The notes beneath the pieces were generated by a model that was given only the letters and a program-made list of their open reading frames with translations, searched no databases and was not told the origin of the DNA. 45,009 bases of DNA, taken from positions 1 to 45,009 of the forward strand of contig JBDRBK010000110.1 of NCBI GenBank assembly GCA_043822705.1, given 5' to 3'. Source of the DNA: Fidelibacterota bacterium. GTDB taxonomy: Bacteria; Fidelibacterota; Marinisomatia; Marinisomatales; TCS56. The translations under genes were made by a program, and so were the position numbers. This document shows, piece after piece, positions 29,368 through 38,653 of this stretch (its first letter is position 1; each line of letters starts with the position of its first letter).

Positions 29368-30867
29368 TCAGTTACTGGTCCGTAAAAATTCCTCCTGCAG
29401 ATACTTATGCAAAATTGCCTCCCTGCCGGCAATCCCCGACTTTTCCAGGTATTCAAAAATCTGGTCTGAACGTTGTGCCAGAATCGAATGGCAGAGGGTG
29501 CAGTTAGCGGAAATATTGTTCCCCTGATCATCCAGCAGATACTGGTTATGACAACGATAACACCCCAGATCATGCTCGTGACCGACATGATCGGGATAGC
29601 TGCCCCAGGTGATGCTCATCCGGGGGTGGATGTTGCGCTTATAGACGTCCTGAAGTGTTGCGATCGCCTGATCTAACAGGTCCTGGTTGGCGGCCGTGAA
29701 TTCCGGATAATTATGATTATAATAGGACTGGATAATAAATCGGATTTTTTCCAGACCATTTTCCTTAGTCCGGAAATTGGAATTCTTTAACGCTTTCAAT
29801 CCCTCGCGCTTGATGTATGGAATCCGGCGATCAATCAGGCCAGAGCGAATCCGGTCATCGATGGCGTTATCCGGATCCTCGTAAATATGAGTCGCCCGGT
29901 TATGGCAATCGACACAGTCGAGAGTGCGAACTGTTTCGGAATTAATTTCCGAATTATTCAGATTGCGGTTGTTGTAGCGCTTGTAACTACCGTCCGGTTG
30001 CAGCACTTCGACCCAGGCGATTTCCTCACGTTCATCGGTAACCGAAACAAATCGTACTTCATTCTCCCGGGCGATGTGCCAGTGAATCCCCGACGGCTGC
30101 GCCCCCTTTCCCGCATCGATTTTCAGCAACAGCGTGGTATACTGCGGATTCGAATGCTCGTCCTGACCATAGTGAATTGTCGATTTCAGGCGCCGACCGT
30201 AAAATTTGTCCGGCCAGTGGCATTTTTCGCAGGTTTCCCGGGCCGGGCGCAGGTTGTGCACCGGCGTTGGAATCGGTCGATTATAAAGATCGAAAGTGGC
30301 GGAAACCATCTGCCAGACACCATTCAATTTGGCATCAAATTTGGCGCCGACCCCTTCACCGATATGGCAATCAACGCAGGCCACCCGAGCATGCGGACTC
30401 TGCTGATAGGCCGCCCATTCGGGTCCCATGACGTCGTGGCAGGCGGTCCCGCAAAATTCGGAGGAATCCATGAAATGCAGCGCATTGATACTGACCGAAC
30501 TGAGAAATACAATACTGGCGACGGTTAGGATGGTGACAATCCACAAAGCTCGCGAACCGGTAATCCGTGCTTTCAAATCATCAGGATCGAAACTTTCCGC
30601 GAACAGTTCACGGGTGGTTTTTCCGGTTGTTTTCCGGAATTGCCACCAGCCGATCGGTACCAGGATCAGGCCCAGAATGAACAGGGCCGGGAATAAAAGA
30701 TAGGCAATCAGTCCGGCATAGGCATTAGCGAATAGTCCGATGAATTGCAGTATCTGGAAAAAGAAAAAAGATACCGTCGACGACAAGATCAGGATCACAC
30801 CCACCTTACCGGTCCAATGTCGTGATAGACGCCGGACGATATTGATATATTTTAGAAAGCGGTTCAT
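29368..30867 (-). CDS. NapC/NirT-like membrane multiheme cytochrome c (6 heme motifs)
   Basis: Three N-terminal TM helices, FCGTACHDVM (CX3CH), SPHARVACVDCH, CEKCH, CVDCH, CYRCH, CTLCH; ATGA overlap with the upstream gene. Confidence 0.85.
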   Translation of the reverse strand: MNRFLKYINIVRRLSRHWTGKVGVILILSSTVSFFFFQILQFIGLFANAYAGLIAYLLFPALFILGLILVPIGWWQFRKTTGKTTRELFAESFDPDDLKARITGSRALWIVTILTVASIVFLSSVSINALHFMDSSEFCGTACHDVMGPEWAAYQQSPHARVACVDCHIGEGVGAKFDAKLNGVWQMVSATFDLYNRPIPTPVHNLRPARETCEKCHWPDKFYGRRLKSTIHYGQDEHSNPQYTTLLLKIDAGKGAQPSGIHWHIARENEVRFVSVTDEREEIAWVEVLQPDGSYKRYNNRNLNNSEINSETVRTLDCVDCHNRATHIYEDPDNAIDDRIRSGLIDRRIPYIKREGLKALKNSNFRTKENGLEKIRFIIQSYYNHNYPEFTAANQDLLDQAIATLQDVYKRNIHPRMSITWGSYPDHVGHEHDLGCYRCHNQYLLDDQGNNISANCTLCHSILAQRSDQIFEYLEKSGIAGREAILHKYLQEEFLRTSN

Positions 30868-32180
30868 TCAGAATCGTAAAAACGCCGGTACAAAGCTTCC
30901 AGCTCGCCACTGTGAATCGCTTTTTTCAACTCGCTTTCAGAGCGGTTCATCCAGTTGTGCAGTGGATCTTCAATCAGCAACCGATCGATCATCGCATTCA
31001 CTTCGGCATCGTTCAGTTTCCGCGCTTCCGGTAGCAACTTGAAATAGAAATTATGCGCCACATCGTACATCCCGTGCCACCAGGCGTAATCCGGACCTGC
31101 CATCGCCACACCATGACGCGCCCGGCGGCCTTCATGATGCCACAGTTCCCAATAAATCCATTCGATTCCATTGCCGAAAGCCGCCTGGTTCTCCAGCAAT
31201 CCTTTCTTCTTGATCAGATCGATCAGCTCAGTGGCCGGACGGGCAAATTTTTCATCGTACAGTTTTACGAAGCTATCGAATTGGTAAAAATGACCGGAAA
31301 TAAATGTTGAAGTATGGCAGGCCTGACAGACATCCTTCATATTCTTGCGCTTCTCGGAATAATCATCTTTAAGCTGTGAGATTGGAGGCCGTAGCGACCA
31401 TTGAATACGGTTTCCCACATCATGGGTGGATTCCTGAAAACGGGTGGCTCCCATATGGCAGGTAACACAGGTCGGCGCTTCATAATAATCCTCGCCGACT
31501 ATCCAACTGTATGAATCAAGATTCATCTTATCCCGGTTGGTGTAATAAATATTACCGTGCTTGGATTCCTCATATACTTCTTTCTGAGGATGATCCGGCC
31601 CTAAATGACATTTCGAGCAGGCTTCCGGCTGGCGGGCCTGGGCCTTGGAAAAACCGTGCCGGGTGTGGCAGGCATTGCAGGAGCCTTTGGATCCATCGGG
31701 ATTGATGCGACCGATCCCGGAATTGGGCCAGGATTGGCGATCCAGCTTGTTCGGCGAATTGGGATCGATTTTTATTCGAGCCCCATGGCAACTTTCACAA
31801 CCGGTAACCACTACCTGATGACCGCCGAGCACATTCGCCAGATAGGCATCCTGCGATTCGAGGATCATTCCGGCCGTGGCATGATAGGAAGCGCCGACTT
31901 CCTCCATTTCCTTCTCATGGCAGATGCCGCAATCATCAGGTGTGACCAGGGTTGCGACATAACTATCTTCGTGCAGGAAGGCATCCACGTCGTCTTCCGC
32001 CGCACCATGGCAATCGATACAGGTAACCTCATATTCGGCATGAGTCGATTCCAGCCACTGCCGGTAAAGTCCAGGCGTTTTTTCCTTGTGGCACACCATA
32101 CAGCGCGCAGCATCCTGCGCCGGAAGAAACGCCGGTAGCAATAAAAGGATAACTAAATATCCTGATAAGCGTTTGTTCAT
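30864..32180 (-). CDS. Octaheme hydroxylamine oxidoreductase (HAO)-family cytochrome c
   Basis: Sec signal; eight CxxCH; CNACHTRHGFS, CSKCHLGPDHPQKEVYEESKHG, APTCVTCHM, helical C-terminus with HHEGRRARHGVAMAGPDYAWWHG. Confidence 0.88.
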   Translation of the reverse strand: MNKRLSGYLVILLLLPAFLPAQDAARCMVCHKEKTPGLYRQWLESTHAEYEVTCIDCHGAAEDDVDAFLHEDSYVATLVTPDDCGICHEKEMEEVGASYHATAGMILESQDAYLANVLGGHQVVVTGCESCHGARIKIDPNSPNKLDRQSWPNSGIGRINPDGSKGSCNACHTRHGFSKAQARQPEACSKCHLGPDHPQKEVYEESKHGNIYYTNRDKMNLDSYSWIVGEDYYEAPTCVTCHMGATRFQESTHDVGNRIQWSLRPPISQLKDDYSEKRKNMKDVCQACHTSTFISGHFYQFDSFVKLYDEKFARPATELIDLIKKKGLLENQAAFGNGIEWIYWELWHHEGRRARHGVAMAGPDYAWWHGMYDVAHNFYFKLLPEARKLNDAEVNAMIDRLLIEDPLHNWMNRSESELKKAIHSGELEALYRRFYDSE

Positions 32181-32256
32181 TTACTTAACCCCAGACAAGT
32201 TTCGATGCCTGAGATTAACAATATTTCCAGTCAATAACAACCGACCAGATATCGGC

Positions 32257-33081
32257 CTAACTACGATAAACTCGCAATCGGCCGGCAAAATATTTTATAA
32301 CATAGCTGAGTCCCAGCAATAGGGCTCCCAAGGTGATTATCACCGGTCCTGACGGCAGGTCGAAAATGTATGAAAAATACAGACCACCCAGTGAAATGAC
32401 GATTCCGATCAGCGTCGATATCAGGATTACCAGCAGGAATCGGCGCGCCAGCATTAGACCGATCAACGGCGGTATTGTCAGCAAGGCGATGACCAGAATC
32501 ACCCCCACCAGTTGGATCAGCAAAACGATGGAAACCGCTATCATCAGCATGAACACGATCATCAGTGTCCGAACCGGCAGACCTTGCACCCGGGCAAATT
32601 CCTCATCGAAAGATATGGCGACGAATTCCTTGTAGAATGCAAAGATCACCGACACGACAATGATGTCGATTATCAGGGTCACCAATATATCCTGATTGGA
32701 AACGGCTAATATATTACCGAACAGGTACGTCATCAGGTTCGGTGCGTAACCAGGCGTCCGGGCAATAAATATAATCCCGACTGCCATTCCCAGGGCCCAC
32801 AGAATGCCGATTAAGGAGTTTTGACTGATTAATTTTTCCCGGTTAGCCAGCCCAAGAATTACCGCCATTATCGCAGTTACCAGGAATCCACCCGCCAGCG
32901 GATTTAATCCCAGATAATAAAAGGCACCGATCCCGCCAAAAGCCGCATGACTGATACCACCGCTGATAAATACCAATCGTTTAACGACAATGAAGGTGCC
33001 GAGCAGTCCGCAGAGGATGCTGGACAGTACGCCGATCAGAATGGCGTTTCGAATAAATTCGTAACTGAGCAGTTCACCCAT
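32257..33081 (-). CDS. znuB: Zn/Mn ABC transporter permease
   Basis: ISHAAFGG, YLFGNIL, SFDEEFARVQG, VGVILVIALLTIP, LPSGP. Confidence 0.88.
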   Translation of the reverse strand: MGELLSYEFIRNAILIGVLSSILCGLLGTFIVVKRLVFISGGISHAAFGGIGAFYYLGLNPLAGGFLVTAIMAVILGLANREKLISQNSLIGILWALGMAVGIIFIARTPGYAPNLMTYLFGNILAVSNQDILVTLIIDIIVVSVIFAFYKEFVAISFDEEFARVQGLPVRTLMIVFMLMIAVSIVLLIQLVGVILVIALLTIPPLIGLMLARRFLLVILISTLIGIVISLGGLYFSYIFDLPSGPVIITLGALLLGLSYVIKYFAGRLRVYRS

Positions 33082-33082
33082 G

Positions 33083-33835
33083 TCAATCCCGGTGGCGTTT
33101 CAGCACCCGATGAGGTACGCCATGAGCGATTAATTCCACCGGACAGCCATACACTTGGTTGAGTGTCGCTTCCGAAACCTCACCTGAATCGTGAACATAA
33201 ACCTGGCGGTTCACACAGACGATCCGTTTAGTCGCCGGAGTAATGGCGGTGGCATCATGGGTGATCAGCACTATCGGGATACTTTGATTGAAACGGTTCA
33301 GTATCGAATTCAAAGTATTTCGTGAATCGGAATCAATGGCGGCGGTTGGTTCATCAAGAATCAATAATTCCGGTTCGGAAATCAGGGCCCGGGCGATCAG
33401 GACCCGCTGCAACTCGCCACCGGATAATTCACTGACGAAGGCATTCAGCAGATGAGTAATCCGGATTTCTTCAGCGATGTCACGAACCGCCCGGTCATCA
33501 GCACTGTTAAACCATCGCAACAGACCACGCCGATAGCAGCGCCCCATCCGGATGATTTCAGAAACCTGCAATGGGAATTGCCAGTCAAAAGTGGAAAACT
33601 GGGGCACATAGCCAATCCCGCGCCGCCCCTTCTCGAGCCGCAGGATTACCTTCCCTAATCGCGGAGCAAGCAGACCCAGAATCAATTTGGCCATAGTGGT
33701 TTTACCACCACCATTGGGACCGATAACGACCATATAATCCGTGGCATAGATTGCGAGGTTGACCCGTTCCAGCACCGTGCGGTTATCGTAACCGAAGCTG
33801 ACGTCATTCAATTCTACTAATGCCGGTTCAGTCAT
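33083..33835 (-). CDS. znuC: Zn/Mn ABC transporter ATPase
   Basis: GPNGGGKTT, IGYVPQ, LSGGELQR, LDEP, C-terminal YGCPVELIAHGVPHRV. Confidence 0.88.
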   Translation of the reverse strand: MTEPALVELNDVSFGYDNRTVLERVNLAIYATDYMVVIGPNGGGKTTMAKLILGLLAPRLGKVILRLEKGRRGIGYVPQFSTFDWQFPLQVSEIIRMGRCYRRGLLRWFNSADDRAVRDIAEEIRITHLLNAFVSELSGGELQRVLIARALISEPELLILDEPTAAIDSDSRNTLNSILNRFNQSIPIVLITHDATAITPATKRIVCVNRQVYVHDSGEVSEATLNQVYGCPVELIAHGVPHRVLKRHRD

Positions 33836-34739
33836 TGGTCAATGAATTTTTAAATATTTGGGCGACTTTTCGCAGATTATTCAGCCAATCATATTCCAGT
33901 GGATTCAACTCCACGATTTGGCCGCCGGTTTCACGGGCAATGATTTCGGCGCTGCGCCGGGAAAATCCCTGCTGCACGAAAATCACTTTGATGTTCTCGG
34001 TCTTTGCCTGATCGATGATATCGATCAATTGCGCGGGGCTCGGTTCCTTGCCCTGCGCTTCGATTTCAACCTGTTCCAGATCATATTCCCGGGCAAAATG
34101 TCCCCAGACCGGGTGATAGACCAGGAATTTTCTGCTTTGTACCGTGCTCAACTCTGTCCTGATTTCCTGATCCAGATTAACAATTTCATCAAGGAAGATA
34201 TCGCTGTTTCGTTGATAAAAACCGGCATTATCGGGATCGAGCGACATCAATCGGGCGGTAATGACCTTCACGGCGGAACTGACGGTATTCGGTGAAATCC
34301 AGATATGCGGATCGGTCTCATCACCACCGTGTGAATGCACCGCTGTCGGCTCCGCGCCATGCTCCGGCCGGTTGACTTCTGGACCAGCCCACATCGAAAT
34401 CACGGTAATCGTGGGTAATTCGGCCAGGACCGGTTCGATATGAACCGGTTCGAAAATAAAGTTGGGGTGGCCAATCTTGACATAAATCGCACTCCGGGCA
34501 AGCTTTACTACTTGCCGTGGTGTCGGTGCATAAGTCGCCGGCGCCGCACCGGATGGTATCAGGTAATCGACCGTGACCTTATCGCCGCCGATCCGCTTGA
34601 CGAAATAAGCCTGAGGCGCGATACTGGTCATCACCGGTATTGGTGGTCCGGACCGGGCCATTGTCATCGATAAGATTAAAATCAGTGGCAGTGATCCGGA
34701 GCGGACGGTGAGTGATCGCAGTAATCTTAGCTGTCCCAT
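33828..34739 (-). CDS. znuA: Zn/Mn ABC transporter substrate-binding protein
   Basis: Short His-containing loop (EHGAEPTAVHSHGG), DPHIWISP, VYHPVWGHFA, GKEPSP; start codon uncertain. Confidence 0.85.
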   Translation of the reverse strand: MGQLRLLRSLTVRSGSLPLILILSMTMARSGPPIPVMTSIAPQAYFVKRIGGDKVTVDYLIPSGAAPATYAPTPRQVVKLARSAIYVKIGHPNFIFEPVHIEPVLAELPTITVISMWAGPEVNRPEHGAEPTAVHSHGGDETDPHIWISPNTVSSAVKVITARLMSLDPDNAGFYQRNSDIFLDEIVNLDQEIRTELSTVQSRKFLVYHPVWGHFAREYDLEQVEIEAQGKEPSPAQLIDIIDQAKTENIKVIFVQQGFSRRSAEIIARETGGQIVELNPLEYDWLNNLRKVAQIFKNSLTND

Positions 34740-34854: not shown

Positions 34855-35271
34855 TCAGCCGACGACCGGGGACTTGAGAGTAAGTTTGCCGTTGCCACCA
34901 TTGATCAGTTCCAACTGGGCAATCAGTTGTCCCTGATTTACCGGTTTGCGCAAAACTCGGTCGGCGCCGGTAATGGTCAAATTATCGGATATTGTATCCG
35001 TGGCGGTAACCACCACTATCGGTTTGGTGAATCCTGTACGCCGTAATTCCCGGATTGTGTCCAGACCGCTCATGCCGGGCATGTGGATATCCATGAATAC
35101 TATCTCCGGCTGATGGGTATTACAGAGTCGAATCGCTTCATCGCCACTCAGGGCTGATAAAATATTCCCGTTATAAGCCTGCTTCAAAAAAAACTGGTAC
35201 AGGCGATTGACGGAAATATCGTCATCTACAATTATAATCGATCGGTCTATCGTTGGTTCAGTGGATTGCAT
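34855..35271 (-). CDS. Stand-alone response regulator receiver (CheY-like)
   Basis: IIIVDDD, VFMDIHMPGMSG, VVVTA, LRKP; no output domain; TGATG overlap with the TPR gene stop. Confidence 0.9.
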   Translation of the reverse strand: MQSTEPTIDRSIIIVDDDISVNRLYQFFLKQAYNGNILSALSGDEAIRLCNTHQPEIVFMDIHMPGMSGLDTIRELRRTGFTKPIVVVTATDTISDNLTITGADRVLRKPVNQGQLIAQLELINGGNGKLTLKSPVVG

Positions 35272-36761
35272 CAGTCCAGACCCTTAGTTTTCATCAGTAC
35301 TTGTTGGTAAGAAATATCCAGATCGTCGGCCAGCTTTCGTTTATTATGCTGGTATTTATTGAGCAGGAAATCAAATAGGTCACTATCGAATTTTTTATTT
35401 GCCGATCGCCAATCAAGAACGGCAATGCTGTCAAGATAACGCTGGAAATAGGGATTATTTTCAATTTGTTTCGGAATTCCCGGTCCCCGTTTTAAGCCCA
35501 GTTTTTTCTGGTGTGTAAAGTAGGTCCTTGGTTCGATTTTAAGTTTCTGGCACATGTCCGGTGCGTTTTTGGAGCGATCCAGATGAAGTTTTAGCAGATT
35601 TGTATGGAAAATATCACGAATATCCTTCAGTGATTTATCCATGGTAAACCTGAATATTTCAGCGTTGAGATCAATCTCGACAATAGATTTATTTCGGTCA
35701 AGAAAACTGATGTAGGAATTCAGTAATTTCTTCCGATATCCAAGAATCCGTAGGCCCAGATCGATCTCCTGTTGCAGGTCCTTATAGCCCGTTGCATAGT
35801 ATTTATCCGCCAGCGCTTTTTCCCCGATTTTATCATGGCACAGACCCAGTTTATAATAATCTTCGAATGCCATGTCGCGCATCTCATAGCGCGTTGTCAA
35901 TTGAAGTGATTGCGAATGATAGCGAATGGCCTCTTGATACTCCCCCTGTTCGAATTCCAAATATCCGAGGTTTTGCAATGCCAGACCTTCTTGATAGGGT
36001 GACAATTCATGACTCAGGATGTCCGTATATATCAATTTAGCATTGATGAAATCACTCTCCATCACGAATAGCCACCCCCGATCATTCAATACATCATATT
36101 TATATAAATCGAGCTTATGCCTTTCGGATAATTCAATGGCCTGATCGTAGTATTTCCTCGCCAAACCGAAATCATTCTTCGCTAAGTACGTTGTACCAAG
36201 ATGACGGAATAAACGAGCGATACGTATATAATTATACTTTTCTTTGTAGTAACTGAGGCAACGATTAATAATTTCAATTGCCAAATCTGGATTACTGAAT
36301 TTATAACTCAAGGCTAATTGCGTAGTTAATTTCCAATAGAGTCCATTATTCTTTGTTAATCTGAGAGCCTCATTCAATATCGCAATTGCTTCGTTTTTAT
36401 ACCCTAGTTTTCTCAATAGATTGGATAGTTCCGAATAAAGTAAAGCAATAGATTCGTCACCCGATACTAAATCAAAAGACGTTTTAAAGGCTGCAAACGC
36501 CTTTAGATAATTTCCAACGAATGTATGAATCCCCCCAATTCCTGCTAATACTATCCCCTTTAACTCTTGATCTTCTACATTTTCTAATTGTATTAATTTA
36601 TTTAAAGCAATTTTACTCGAGATAATATTCAGATCTGATATCTCAGTCATTACTTCAACATAATTTTGTACAATTAGGTTTTTTGTTAAATCATTTAAGG
36701 ATATCTCTATTTTTGGAAATGGAACAAGGGATTTAACATCTATTGAAACGGTTTTATTCAT
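35271..36761 (-). CDS. TPR-repeat protein with two C-terminal Fis-like helix-turn-helix motifs; putative transcription regulator
   Basis: TPR-like units (LGTTYLAKNDFGLARKYYDQAIEL; LQNLGYLEFEQGEYQEAIRYHSQSLQL; LGLCHDKIGEKALADKYY); residues about 376-423 and 449-496 resemble each other and Fis/HTH_8. Confidence 0.75.
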   Translation of the reverse strand: MNKTVSIDVKSLVPFPKIEISLNDLTKNLIVQNYVEVMTEISDLNIISSKIALNKLIQLENVEDQELKGIVLAGIGGIHTFVGNYLKAFAAFKTSFDLVSGDESIALLYSELSNLLRKLGYKNEAIAILNEALRLTKNNGLYWKLTTQLALSYKFSNPDLAIEIINRCLSYYKEKYNYIRIARLFRHLGTTYLAKNDFGLARKYYDQAIELSERHKLDLYKYDVLNDRGWLFVMESDFINAKLIYTDILSHELSPYQEGLALQNLGYLEFEQGEYQEAIRYHSQSLQLTTRYEMRDMAFEDYYKLGLCHDKIGEKALADKYYATGYKDLQQEIDLGLRILGYRKKLLNSYISFLDRNKSIVEIDLNAEIFRFTMDKSLKDIRDIFHTNLLKLHLDRSKNAPDMCQKLKIEPRTYFTHQKKLGLKRGPGIPKQIENNPYFQRYLDSIAVLDWRSANKKFDSDLFDFLLNKYQHNKRKLADDLDISYQQVLMKTKGLD

Positions 36762-36912
36762 TCTCGTTTGTGCCGGAGTCCGCCTGTACTGCTGTTAAAT
36801 AAACAATGTCAATATTCTGTTTTGAATCTGATGAATCTAAAAGATTCGCGCCGGAATATACCGCTAAAGAAATGGTCAATGAAACTAATGCTACTATTTG
36901 ATTGATGGTCAT
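36754..36912 (-). CDS. Small 52-aa protein with signal-peptide-like N-terminus; candidate signalling propeptide
   Basis: Manual translation MTINQIVALVSLTISLAVYSGANLLDSSDSKQNIDIVYLTAVQADSGTNENE*; AGGAG 6 nt before ATG; stop overlaps the TPR gene start by 8 nt (ATGAATAA); below the ORF-track cutoff. Confidence 0.75.
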   Translation of the reverse strand: MTINQIVALVSLTISLAVYSGANLLDSSDSKQNIDIVYLTAVQADSGTNENE

Positions 36913-36943
36913 GATAATCTCCTGTTAGGTTAATTTTCACTCT

Positions 36944-36972
36944 ATTGTACTGAAATATTTTGTATATATCAA
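36944..36972 (-). promoter_or_regulatory. Sigma70-like promoter for the small ORF-TPR-regulator operon
   Basis: Minus strand TTGATA (36972-36967), 17 nt, TACAAT (36949-36944), about 30 nt upstream of the small ORF ATG. Confidence 0.65.
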
Positions 36973-37066
36973 GATTTATTTTATACATTCAACTACGCCA
37001 GAATCACCGTACTCAATAGATTAACCAACACTAATCTGAAACGGAGTTTGATCGAACGATTAAACA

Positions 37067-38653
37067 ATGCTGACCTTGACCGAAAAAACAACAGAACATT
37101 TCCGCTATCACCCCCTTACCGGTTCTACCAACCCGACCACAACGAAAGTCCTGATAGTCGAAGATGACAAGAATATTGCCAAGAATCTGAGTTATTATCT
37201 GTGTGAAATGAACTATTCCCTATGCGGCGTCATTCGGTCAGGGGAAGAACTTCTCGAACGAATCAATGAGTACCAACCTCAAGTGATCTTGATGGACATT
37301 CAACTGGCGGGTGAATTGGATGGGATAGCTACGGTCGAAAAATTGAACCGAATCTATGACATTCCGGTTATTTATTTGTCGGCTCGCACTGATATGGAGA
37401 CGTTATCCCGGGCCCGGGCTACCGGACAGTTTGGCTATCTGATTAAGCCAGTGAATCCGCTGGAGTTGCATTTCACGATTCAAATGAGCCTCTATAAACA
37501 CGAAGCCGATAGCGTTATACAATCCACCAGGGACTGGCTGCAAACTGCTTTGAACAGCATTGGTGACGGCGTGATCAGTACCGATCCGTGCGGTGTGGTG
37601 ACATTTGTAAATCCGGTCGCCGAAAATATTCTTACAACCACAAGGGACCAGTTATTCGGCCAAAATATTCATGATAACCTGTACCTGATCGACGACAATG
37701 AAATAAATTCGCTGTTCATTTCATCCGACCAGGTAATCGAAGATGAACAATCCCGGAAAATTGCGGGACAAATTCTGGTAAACCGGAAGAAGGGCACGGA
37801 GATTCCCATCGACGGGACCGTTTCGCCGATCATCCGACAGAATGGTAACTTTGATGGCAGTATCTTCGTCTTCCGCGATATAACCAGCCGTATCGAAAAC
37901 GAAAAGTCACAGAAATTACTGGGCGAACAATTGCGTCATTCGCAGAAAATGGAGGCAATCGGATTATTGGCCGGCGGAATTGCCCATGAGTTCAATAATA
38001 TTATTGCCAGTATTTCCAGTTACGCACAAGTGGCTATTACCCAGATTTCGCCCGATGCACCCACCCTGCCGTACTATCAGACGATCCTGAGAAAGTTAGA
38101 TCATGCCACGGTTTTGACGCGCAAGCTGCTGACGATGAACCGCAAGCAGGATCTGAACTTCATGGCGGTTGACCTGAACCAGGTTACCGGCGAACTGGTC
38201 CGGTTTCTTCGTCAGACCATTGTCAAGGATATCAACATCACTTTTGAATTGGATAAGACCATCAAGCCGGTTCGGGCCGATGTGAACTCCATTGAACAGA
38301 TTATCACTAATCTCTGCCTGAATGCCCGTGACGCGATTGATGGCCATGGTACGATTCATCTGTCGACGGCCCAAGTCCGTTCGAGTTCGGAGATCCATGA
38401 TTCATTGACCGATCTGACCGAACCGGAATATGTGCAACTGACTGTGACCGACAACGGCTGTGGAATGGATGAACAAACATTGCAGCGGATATTTGAACCA
38501 TTCTTCACAACCAAATCCGGTGAAAGCGGTACTGGCTTGGGATTATCGATGGTTTACGGGTTGATGAAACAGCACAAAGGAGCGGTACACTGTTCCAGTC
38601 AACCGAACATCGGTACAATTTTTAACCTGTATTTTCCAAATGCTGCACCTTGA
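37067..38653 (+). CDS. Hybrid sensor histidine kinase (REC-PAS-HisKA-HATPase), soluble
   Basis: VLIVEDD...LMDIQL...[15 protein letters not shown]...[55 protein letters not shown]. Only convincing plus-strand gene. Confidence 0.93.

Follow-up and report, generated by a model that had tools for sequence, protein, structure and literature searches.

A conserved 52-codon gene beside a TPR-Fis regulator: a candidate peptide signal precursor in Fidelibacterota

The stretch of DNA that we analysed (the window, 45,009 nucleotides of a Fidelibacterota contig) carries on its minus strand a conserved gene of 52 codons, which overlaps the gene for a TPR regulator of 496 aa. Comparative sequence analysis suggests that the small protein is probably an exported and processed precursor, from which a peptide would be re-imported as the ligand of the cytoplasmic regulator, in a manner resembling the RRNPP systems but in a diderm phylum. 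A sequence-only reading had proposed an exported propeptide from which a C-terminal peptide is cut. This proposal, with the TPR neighbor as recipient of the peptide, now has strong comparative-genomic support, except that the released peptide would be SGTNENE and not DSGTNENE. The features of the locus, in window coordinates, are these.

36754..36912, minus strand: 52-aa precursor ORF (P0002), frame and position conserved in eight loci
36847..36912, minus strand: predicted export signal or anchor, residues 1-22; hydrophobic core 6-18, no basic residue, no lipobox Cys, presumed cleavage site
36757..36777, minus strand: likely mature heptapeptide SGTNENE, residues 46-52; in tandem in locus L259, with SG-initial ends in mini-lipoproteins
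36918..36923, minus strand: AGGAGA ribosome-binding site, 5 nt before the ATG; GGAG invariant in eight loci
36944..36990, minus strand: 47-bp conserved block with a sigma-70-like promoter and an inverted repeat; nearly invariant in eight loci, flanks divergent
35271..36761, minus strand: 496-aa cytoplasmic regulator (P0001), likely receptor; Pfam TPR over cut-off, overlap with the precursor, AlphaFold model
34855..35271, minus strand: single-domain receiver of 138 aa (PF00072); 1-nt overlap with the TPR gene
37067..38653, plus strand: REC-PAS-HisKA-HATPase hybrid kinase, divergent; same position in L072, L073, L043 and L044

A conserved 52-codon gene and its operon

The ORF exists with exactly the sequence first quoted for it, to which we add its strand. 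It had been called unannotated; the exact protein is publicly catalogued as a called gene, while three of the seven relatives looked up bear the name "hypothetical protein". Its product has no Pfam or NCBIfam match. That the frame stays open along AT-rich DNA is true and, alone, weak (p ~0.03 for an open frame of 51 codons at the given composition). Seven related loci hold an ORF of 52 to 54 aa at the same place, with the same ribosome-binding site, overlap and layout, and in all eight precursors the start is hydrophobic, the linker is acidic and the end has the form [DEN]SGxxEN[DEG]. Checked for conservation, as had been advised, the precursor frame is free of stops at 8/8 loci, whereas all other frames contain them. 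Identity across the eight is 0.48, 0.67 and 0.40 at first, second and third codon positions, and S46 and G47 are invariant despite three and four different codons, respectively, varying synonymously only. The pooled pN/pS ratio is 0.75, and it approaches 1 for the two closest pairs of precursor ORFs, so most of the 52-aa ORF is weakly constrained. The 52-aa ORF is a conserved protein-coding gene.

A profile of the eight short precursors (A3) matched strongly in 5 of 301 genomes, each of them from the window's family (f1), and gave six weak matches outside it that cover the hydrophobic start alone. Neither tblastn nor the profiles A2 and A5 found a second precursor or paralogue in the window's own genome (G000, 93% complete). 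Only three of its 18,008 ATG frames end in SGxxxN[DEGS], and among these a hydrophobic start occurs in P0002 alone. GC content is 0.33 over positions 36001-37000 and 0.43 over 35001-36000, with a genome value of ~0.53; the locus is nonetheless syntenic in several family members.

The claim that the precursor has the only good ribosome-binding site of the operon holds by eye, since the TPR and receiver genes lack a GGAG-type site of their own. The last 8 nt of the precursor ORF (ATGAATAA) overlap the start of the TPR gene, and the two genes are translationally coupled through this overlap. In the short forms, the overlapping ATG in part dictates which two residues end the precursor. Within the 47-bp block, a sigma-70-like site (TTGATA-17-TACAAT, 36972-36944) lies 31 nt upstream of the ORF. 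A promoter scan was no richer than shuffles (8 versus 8.8), so the support for this site comes from its conservation and not from the scan. The block is single-copy in G000 (score 68.6, next best 10.7) and also holds an inverted repeat, TGTATA-N15-TATACA (36961-36987), that might serve as an operator. Ahead of 28 other precursors the likeness to the block is weak and promoter-like (8 at shuffle p <=0.03) and thus does not establish a family-wide operator. Farther downstream, on the minus strand, positions 29368-34739 hold a ZnuA-type ABC operon and two multihaem cytochrome c genes, in an order similar to that in L042-L044.

The heptapeptide and the forms of its precursor

Tandem repeats in relatives delimit the peptide. 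The L259 precursor carries two tandem copies of SGTNENE, identical to the end of P0002, and other relatives repeat SGSNEND three, SGTDQNS five, SGPSQNG seven and SGVSENG ten times; the copies differ mostly at synonymous positions (15 precursors compared). An SG-initial heptapeptide closes 30/30 distinct mini-lipoproteins, most of which were retrieved with a profile that includes the tails. These proteins, of 45-105 aa with 1-10 copies of the heptapeptide, lie beside receptors first scored as orphans. Of the two cuts first proposed, the one by signal peptidase after SGA stays a candidate. The second had been placed after AVQA, a motif that is ruled out as a conserved cut site; the repeats set a 7-residue unit beginning at Ser. 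Since the residue preceding the first SG is variable (L, A, G, Y, Q, D, E, S or N) and AVQA is not conserved, the mature unit is likely residues 46-52, SGTNENE. The idea that the tail is merely the ribosome-binding site and start codon of the TPR gene was also rejected, because non-overlapping and internal copies keep it.

Precursors come in three forms: long lipoproteins, mini-lipoproteins and the 52-aa form without a lipobox. The long forms are lipoproteins of 160-240 aa, reaching 380 aa, many without receptor overlap, with tails such as RSGFNENE or GGDGGENG; one of them (L157) carries five internal copies of its own tail, and some end in acidic tails without an SG or GG motif. The model of a long form contains a confident beta domain of ~150 aa, with the last eight residues free and of low confidence. 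Foldseek returned no match for this fold at an E value of 0.001 or better. Its best Z score is 5.2, to cupin-like domains, and ESM Atlas matches to the long precursor (0.86) serve as leads only. The 52-aa form most likely derives from a longer lipoprotein precursor that lost both its folded domain and its lipobox. The receptors of the 52-aa forms nest inside the SG-tail clade, which fits such a shrinkage.

The lipobox Cys is invariant in precursor alignments A2 and A5 and absent from P0002. At the residue number of the relatives' lipobox Cys, P0002 has a Tyr codon (codon 19, 36856-36858, minus strand), TAT, one base from TGT; speculatively, it is possibly a trace of the lost lipid anchor. Three loci depart from the three forms: lipoproteins of 92-98 aa upstream of receptors (L170:2298-2576, L172:2298-2588 and L174:1446-1742) contain an internal RSGFNPKNG or RSGFNNRNG followed by ~15 residues, a fourth layout that would need a C-terminal cut. 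In L175, L178 and L180, hairpin-like inverted repeats occur just past the precursor stop, between the precursor and receptor genes, and may let the precursor be transcribed in excess.

The likely receptor, its pairing and the proposed route

The AlphaFold model of P0001 (pLDDT 85.8, pTM 0.68) comprises N-terminal helices, ~7 TPR pairs and two further helical modules, with the TPRs at residues ~65-357 and a tandem Fis-type HTH after residue ~378. HTH_8/HTH_50 matches occur at the C terminus of all four homologues scanned, over cut-off in two. Structural matches include LGN (Z 22.7), apo NprR (Z 22.1, rmsd 5.0, 311 residues aligned) and a phage Rap protein (Z 21.2, rmsd 5.4, 306 aligned). Because the NprR and Rap scores are tied with those of the eukaryotic LGN TPRs, the model points to a peptide-binding type of fold, not to RRNPP descent. 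The profile match between P0001 and NprR (E 4.5e-5) ranks below generic TPRs. Pfam AimR has no match in P0001 and reaches its cut-off in one of the four homologues scanned (P0066, 26.8 versus 26.7 bits). Grooves of TPR proteins are lined by A helices; conserved polar residues of the receptors number 17 on A helices versus 5 on B helices, and N264 is kept in 133 of 145 receptors.

Named homologues of P0001 are almost all from Marinimicrobia/Fidelibacterota, and the receptor family is present in 81 of the 301 phylum genomes sampled. A search of a representative library returned many full-length relatives, which come without names or context; in viral contigs, 143 pattern matches included no receptor relative. 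ESM Atlas matches to P0001 (score 0.93-0.96) belong to clusters of TPR or TPR-Fis proteins, 470-580 aa long, that are most frequent in Acidobacteriota. In L276/L290 (G308:C10), the receptor appears split over three frames beside an intact SGGSEHG precursor, through either pseudogene formation or an assembly error.

Precursor and receptor genes occur together across the family. Directly downstream of 50 of the 58 distinct long precursors lies a receptor, and the other 8 precursors are at contig ends. For the 33 close-clade receptor loci, a precursor was found on the same contig in 26, the locus is split by contig ends in 2, and none was found in 5. In a phylogeny built from 145 receptors (FastTree, rooted at the midpoint, without partial, masked or over-long frames), tail type tracks receptor clade. 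One genome (G230) holds three precursor-receptor pairs with three different tails, and two others (G022 and G261) hold two pairs each. Five precursors lie 3.3-4.2 kb from their receptor, behind a large opposite-strand gene, and four others are convergent with it, which means that the product must act in trans at those loci. For the 43 receptors of a more distant, well-supported clade, no precursor was seen within ~1.7 kb upstream or 0.8 kb downstream. Receptor-peptide covariation across 26 pairs is mostly phylogenetic signal. One post-hoc lead associates Y256F with Ser at peptide position 5 (3/3 versus 0/23, with one partial exception), for which three held-out pairs are uninformative.

Several other genes recur around these loci. 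In family f24 (L139, L148, L158, L159 and L238-L242), a second, partner-less receptor paralogue is divergent from the precursor-receptor pair and sits behind a conserved ORF of ~105-130 aa. At L118, L119, L142, L153, L156, L025, L028 and L032, the receptors come after large secreted proteins whose C-terminal ends are T9SS-like and some of which have Asp-rich or Cys-rich repeats; such neighbors are common where no precursor is directly upstream. Several families also have a secreted protein of ~940-990 aa that combines an HExxH motif with a TolB-like propeller and is encoded either between the precursor and the receptor or immediately past the precursor:

L244:2-2767, L246:3-2720, L247:4845-7700, L249:4722-7499, L250:4750-7500, L245:5920-8001 and L248:118-2937: HExxH/TolB-like protein

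Its homologue in G000 (L296:3980-6943, G000:C70; 22% identical) is encoded elsewhere in the genome. This protein could be a target or a processing peptidase, or simply a long-standing neighbor.

In the route that we propose, the precursor would be exported via Sec, and a cut before Ser46 would release SGTNENE. The heptapeptide would then re-enter the cytoplasm, with OPT or CstA transporters as candidates, and is predicted to bind in the TPR groove of the regulator encoded next to the precursor. Binding would switch the action of the C-terminal pair of Fis-type HTHs on target promoters, possibly the regulator's own promoter or that of the divergent kinase gene, and the coupled receiver protein could provide another output. 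The peptide may signal cell density or serve as a periplasmic self-signal, two options that we weigh about equally. Neither the Opp binding protein (PF00496) nor PTR2 was found in G000, and of 25 genomes that carry the system only 13 yielded PF00496; the canonical route of import is thus missing. Genes for OPT and CstA are present in G000, where nothing ties them to the precursor locus.

An unlikely alternative dispenses with re-import altogether: the unprocessed precursor tail would bind the TPR regulator in the cytoplasm and export would remove the precursor, so that the pair would sense Sec or lipoprotein export capacity. Needing no importer, such a checkpoint fits the failure to find Opp in G000 and in 12 of the 25 tested genomes; translational coupling would fix the precursor:regulator ratio, and some receptors of the family adjoin secreted proteins with T9SS-type C-terminal domains. 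However, up to 10 exact tandem copies, and several different tails in one genome, better suit dose amplification and private channels.

Rather improbable, too, is a membrane-anchored or surface mini-protein whose Ser/Gly/Asn/acidic tail would serve in glycosylation, metal binding or the envelope, with the role of the TPR protein confined to regulating its transcription. A small membrane-anchored modulator had been raised as a caveat on the ground that the n-region lacks a basic residue. This is true of P0002, whose N-terminal hydropathy is 2.64 over 13 residues and 1.78 over 19, but 7/7 orthologues have such a residue. The lipobox of most relatives and the folded beta domain of the long forms would also suit a surface protein. 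The unit is nevertheless exactly seven residues and flush with the C terminus in 30/30 mini-lipoproteins, the rest of the protein can be lost or replaced, and the tail follows the receptor clade. The caveat is weakened by the multi-copy relatives, which have a lipobox, although P0002 itself lacks the lipobox Cys.

We consider it very unlikely that a sensor in the membrane or periplasm perceives the exported peptide and that the TPR protein, instead of being the direct receptor, acts downstream together with the receiver and the kinase. Import would be avoided, a receiver gene follows 17 of 42 close-clade receptors (versus 1 of 88 others), and a divergent kinase is found in family f1. Yet the TPR gene is the sole neighbor common to all arrangements, and the kinase shows REC, PAS, HisKA and HATPase domains only. 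From its domains and position, we infer that this kinase is a candidate regulated gene or phosphorelay partner.

Least probable of all is a cis-acting leader, ribosome-arrest peptide or vestige that delivers ribosomes to the TPR gene, despite the 8-nt overlap, the absence of a strong ribosome-binding site for the TPR gene, last codons constrained by the overlap and a weakly constrained linker: the same tail occurs in precursors that are non-overlapping, 3-4 kb away or convergent, and the purely synonymous variation of S46 and G47 also argues against it. Coupling is real at P0002 but leaves the motif unexplained. Leader peptides of the SecM and MifM type are known only from positions immediately ahead of the gene that they regulate, within one transcript; here, precursors sharing the tail type are convergent in four cases and distant in five.

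Beyond the re-imported heptapeptide itself, we tentatively entertain, with somewhat more doubt than belief, a broader picture: Marinisomatota would have independently built a form of peptide communication in which lipoprotein or mini precursors shed Ser-Gly heptapeptides that pass the inner membrane independently of Opp to switch TPR-Fis regulators, with several orthogonal dialects side by side in one genome and with precursors derived from a folded beta-domain lipoprotein that shrank to its tail, which then multiplied.

Relation to known peptide systems

Cytoplasmic TPR receptors for exported peptides are described in Bacillota and their mobile elements (PMC10075063, PMC9765709). The criteria for RRNPP(A) systems, as set out in the first of these studies (PMC10075063), are a propeptide of 10-100 aa, Sec export, a TPR receptor of 250-500 aa and adjacent genes; the detection discards clusters with an N-terminal TPR region. 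On the criteria so stated, P0002 (52 aa) falls within the propeptide range, the mini-lipoproteins have 45-105 aa and the long forms exceed it; P0001, with 496 aa and TPRs, falls within the receptor range; and the genes overlap by 8 nt here, while some relatives are 3-4 kb apart. Like NprR-NprX, Rap-Phr, PlcR-PapR and AimR-AimP, the locus pairs a small precursor, with a hydrophobic N terminus and a C-terminal candidate peptide, with a TPR protein encoded beside it. Tandem duplicated pheromone peptides are reported in Bacillota (PMC11343458), and SPII-type propeptides are predicted for a minority of RRNPP systems (PMC9765709). The differences concern the order of domains in P0001 (TPRs N-terminal and tandem Fis-type HTH C-terminal, versus an N-terminal HTH in RRNPP), the diderm host phylum, which is not Bacillota, and the precursors, mostly lipoproteins and some with a folded beta domain; in addition, Opp was not found in G000. 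The system would work like RRNPP, but we do not file it as a member; domain order and host differ.

AimR shares the domain order of P0001, with the TPRs first and the DNA-binding part last. The homologue P0066 just reaches the Pfam AimR cut-off. Unlike AimR-AimP, the present system has a chromosomal setting and a precursor upstream of its receptor, P0001 gave no AimR match, and no receptor relative was found among the pattern matches in viral contigs. In heterocyst-forming cyanobacteria, a peptide from the small precursors PatS/PatX binds the cytoplasmic transcription factor HetR (PMC4649674, PMC7761841, PMC12756182). PatS/PatX-HetR is a diderm precedent for a short peptide acting with a cytoplasmic regulator; it differs in its basic RG(S/T)GR motif, where the heptapeptides here are acidic and SG-initial, and in its role in the cell patterning of filaments. 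HetR is, moreover, not a TPR protein. A search of largely open-access literature listed no paper on such a system in Marinisomatota or other diderms.

The family offers more than 20 natural peptide-receptor pairs that could be tested with purified protein and synthetic peptide, without culture of the host. If confirmed, they would trace a path from a folded lipoprotein to a multi-copy pheromone and extend the TPR peptide-signaling design to an uncultured marine phylum.
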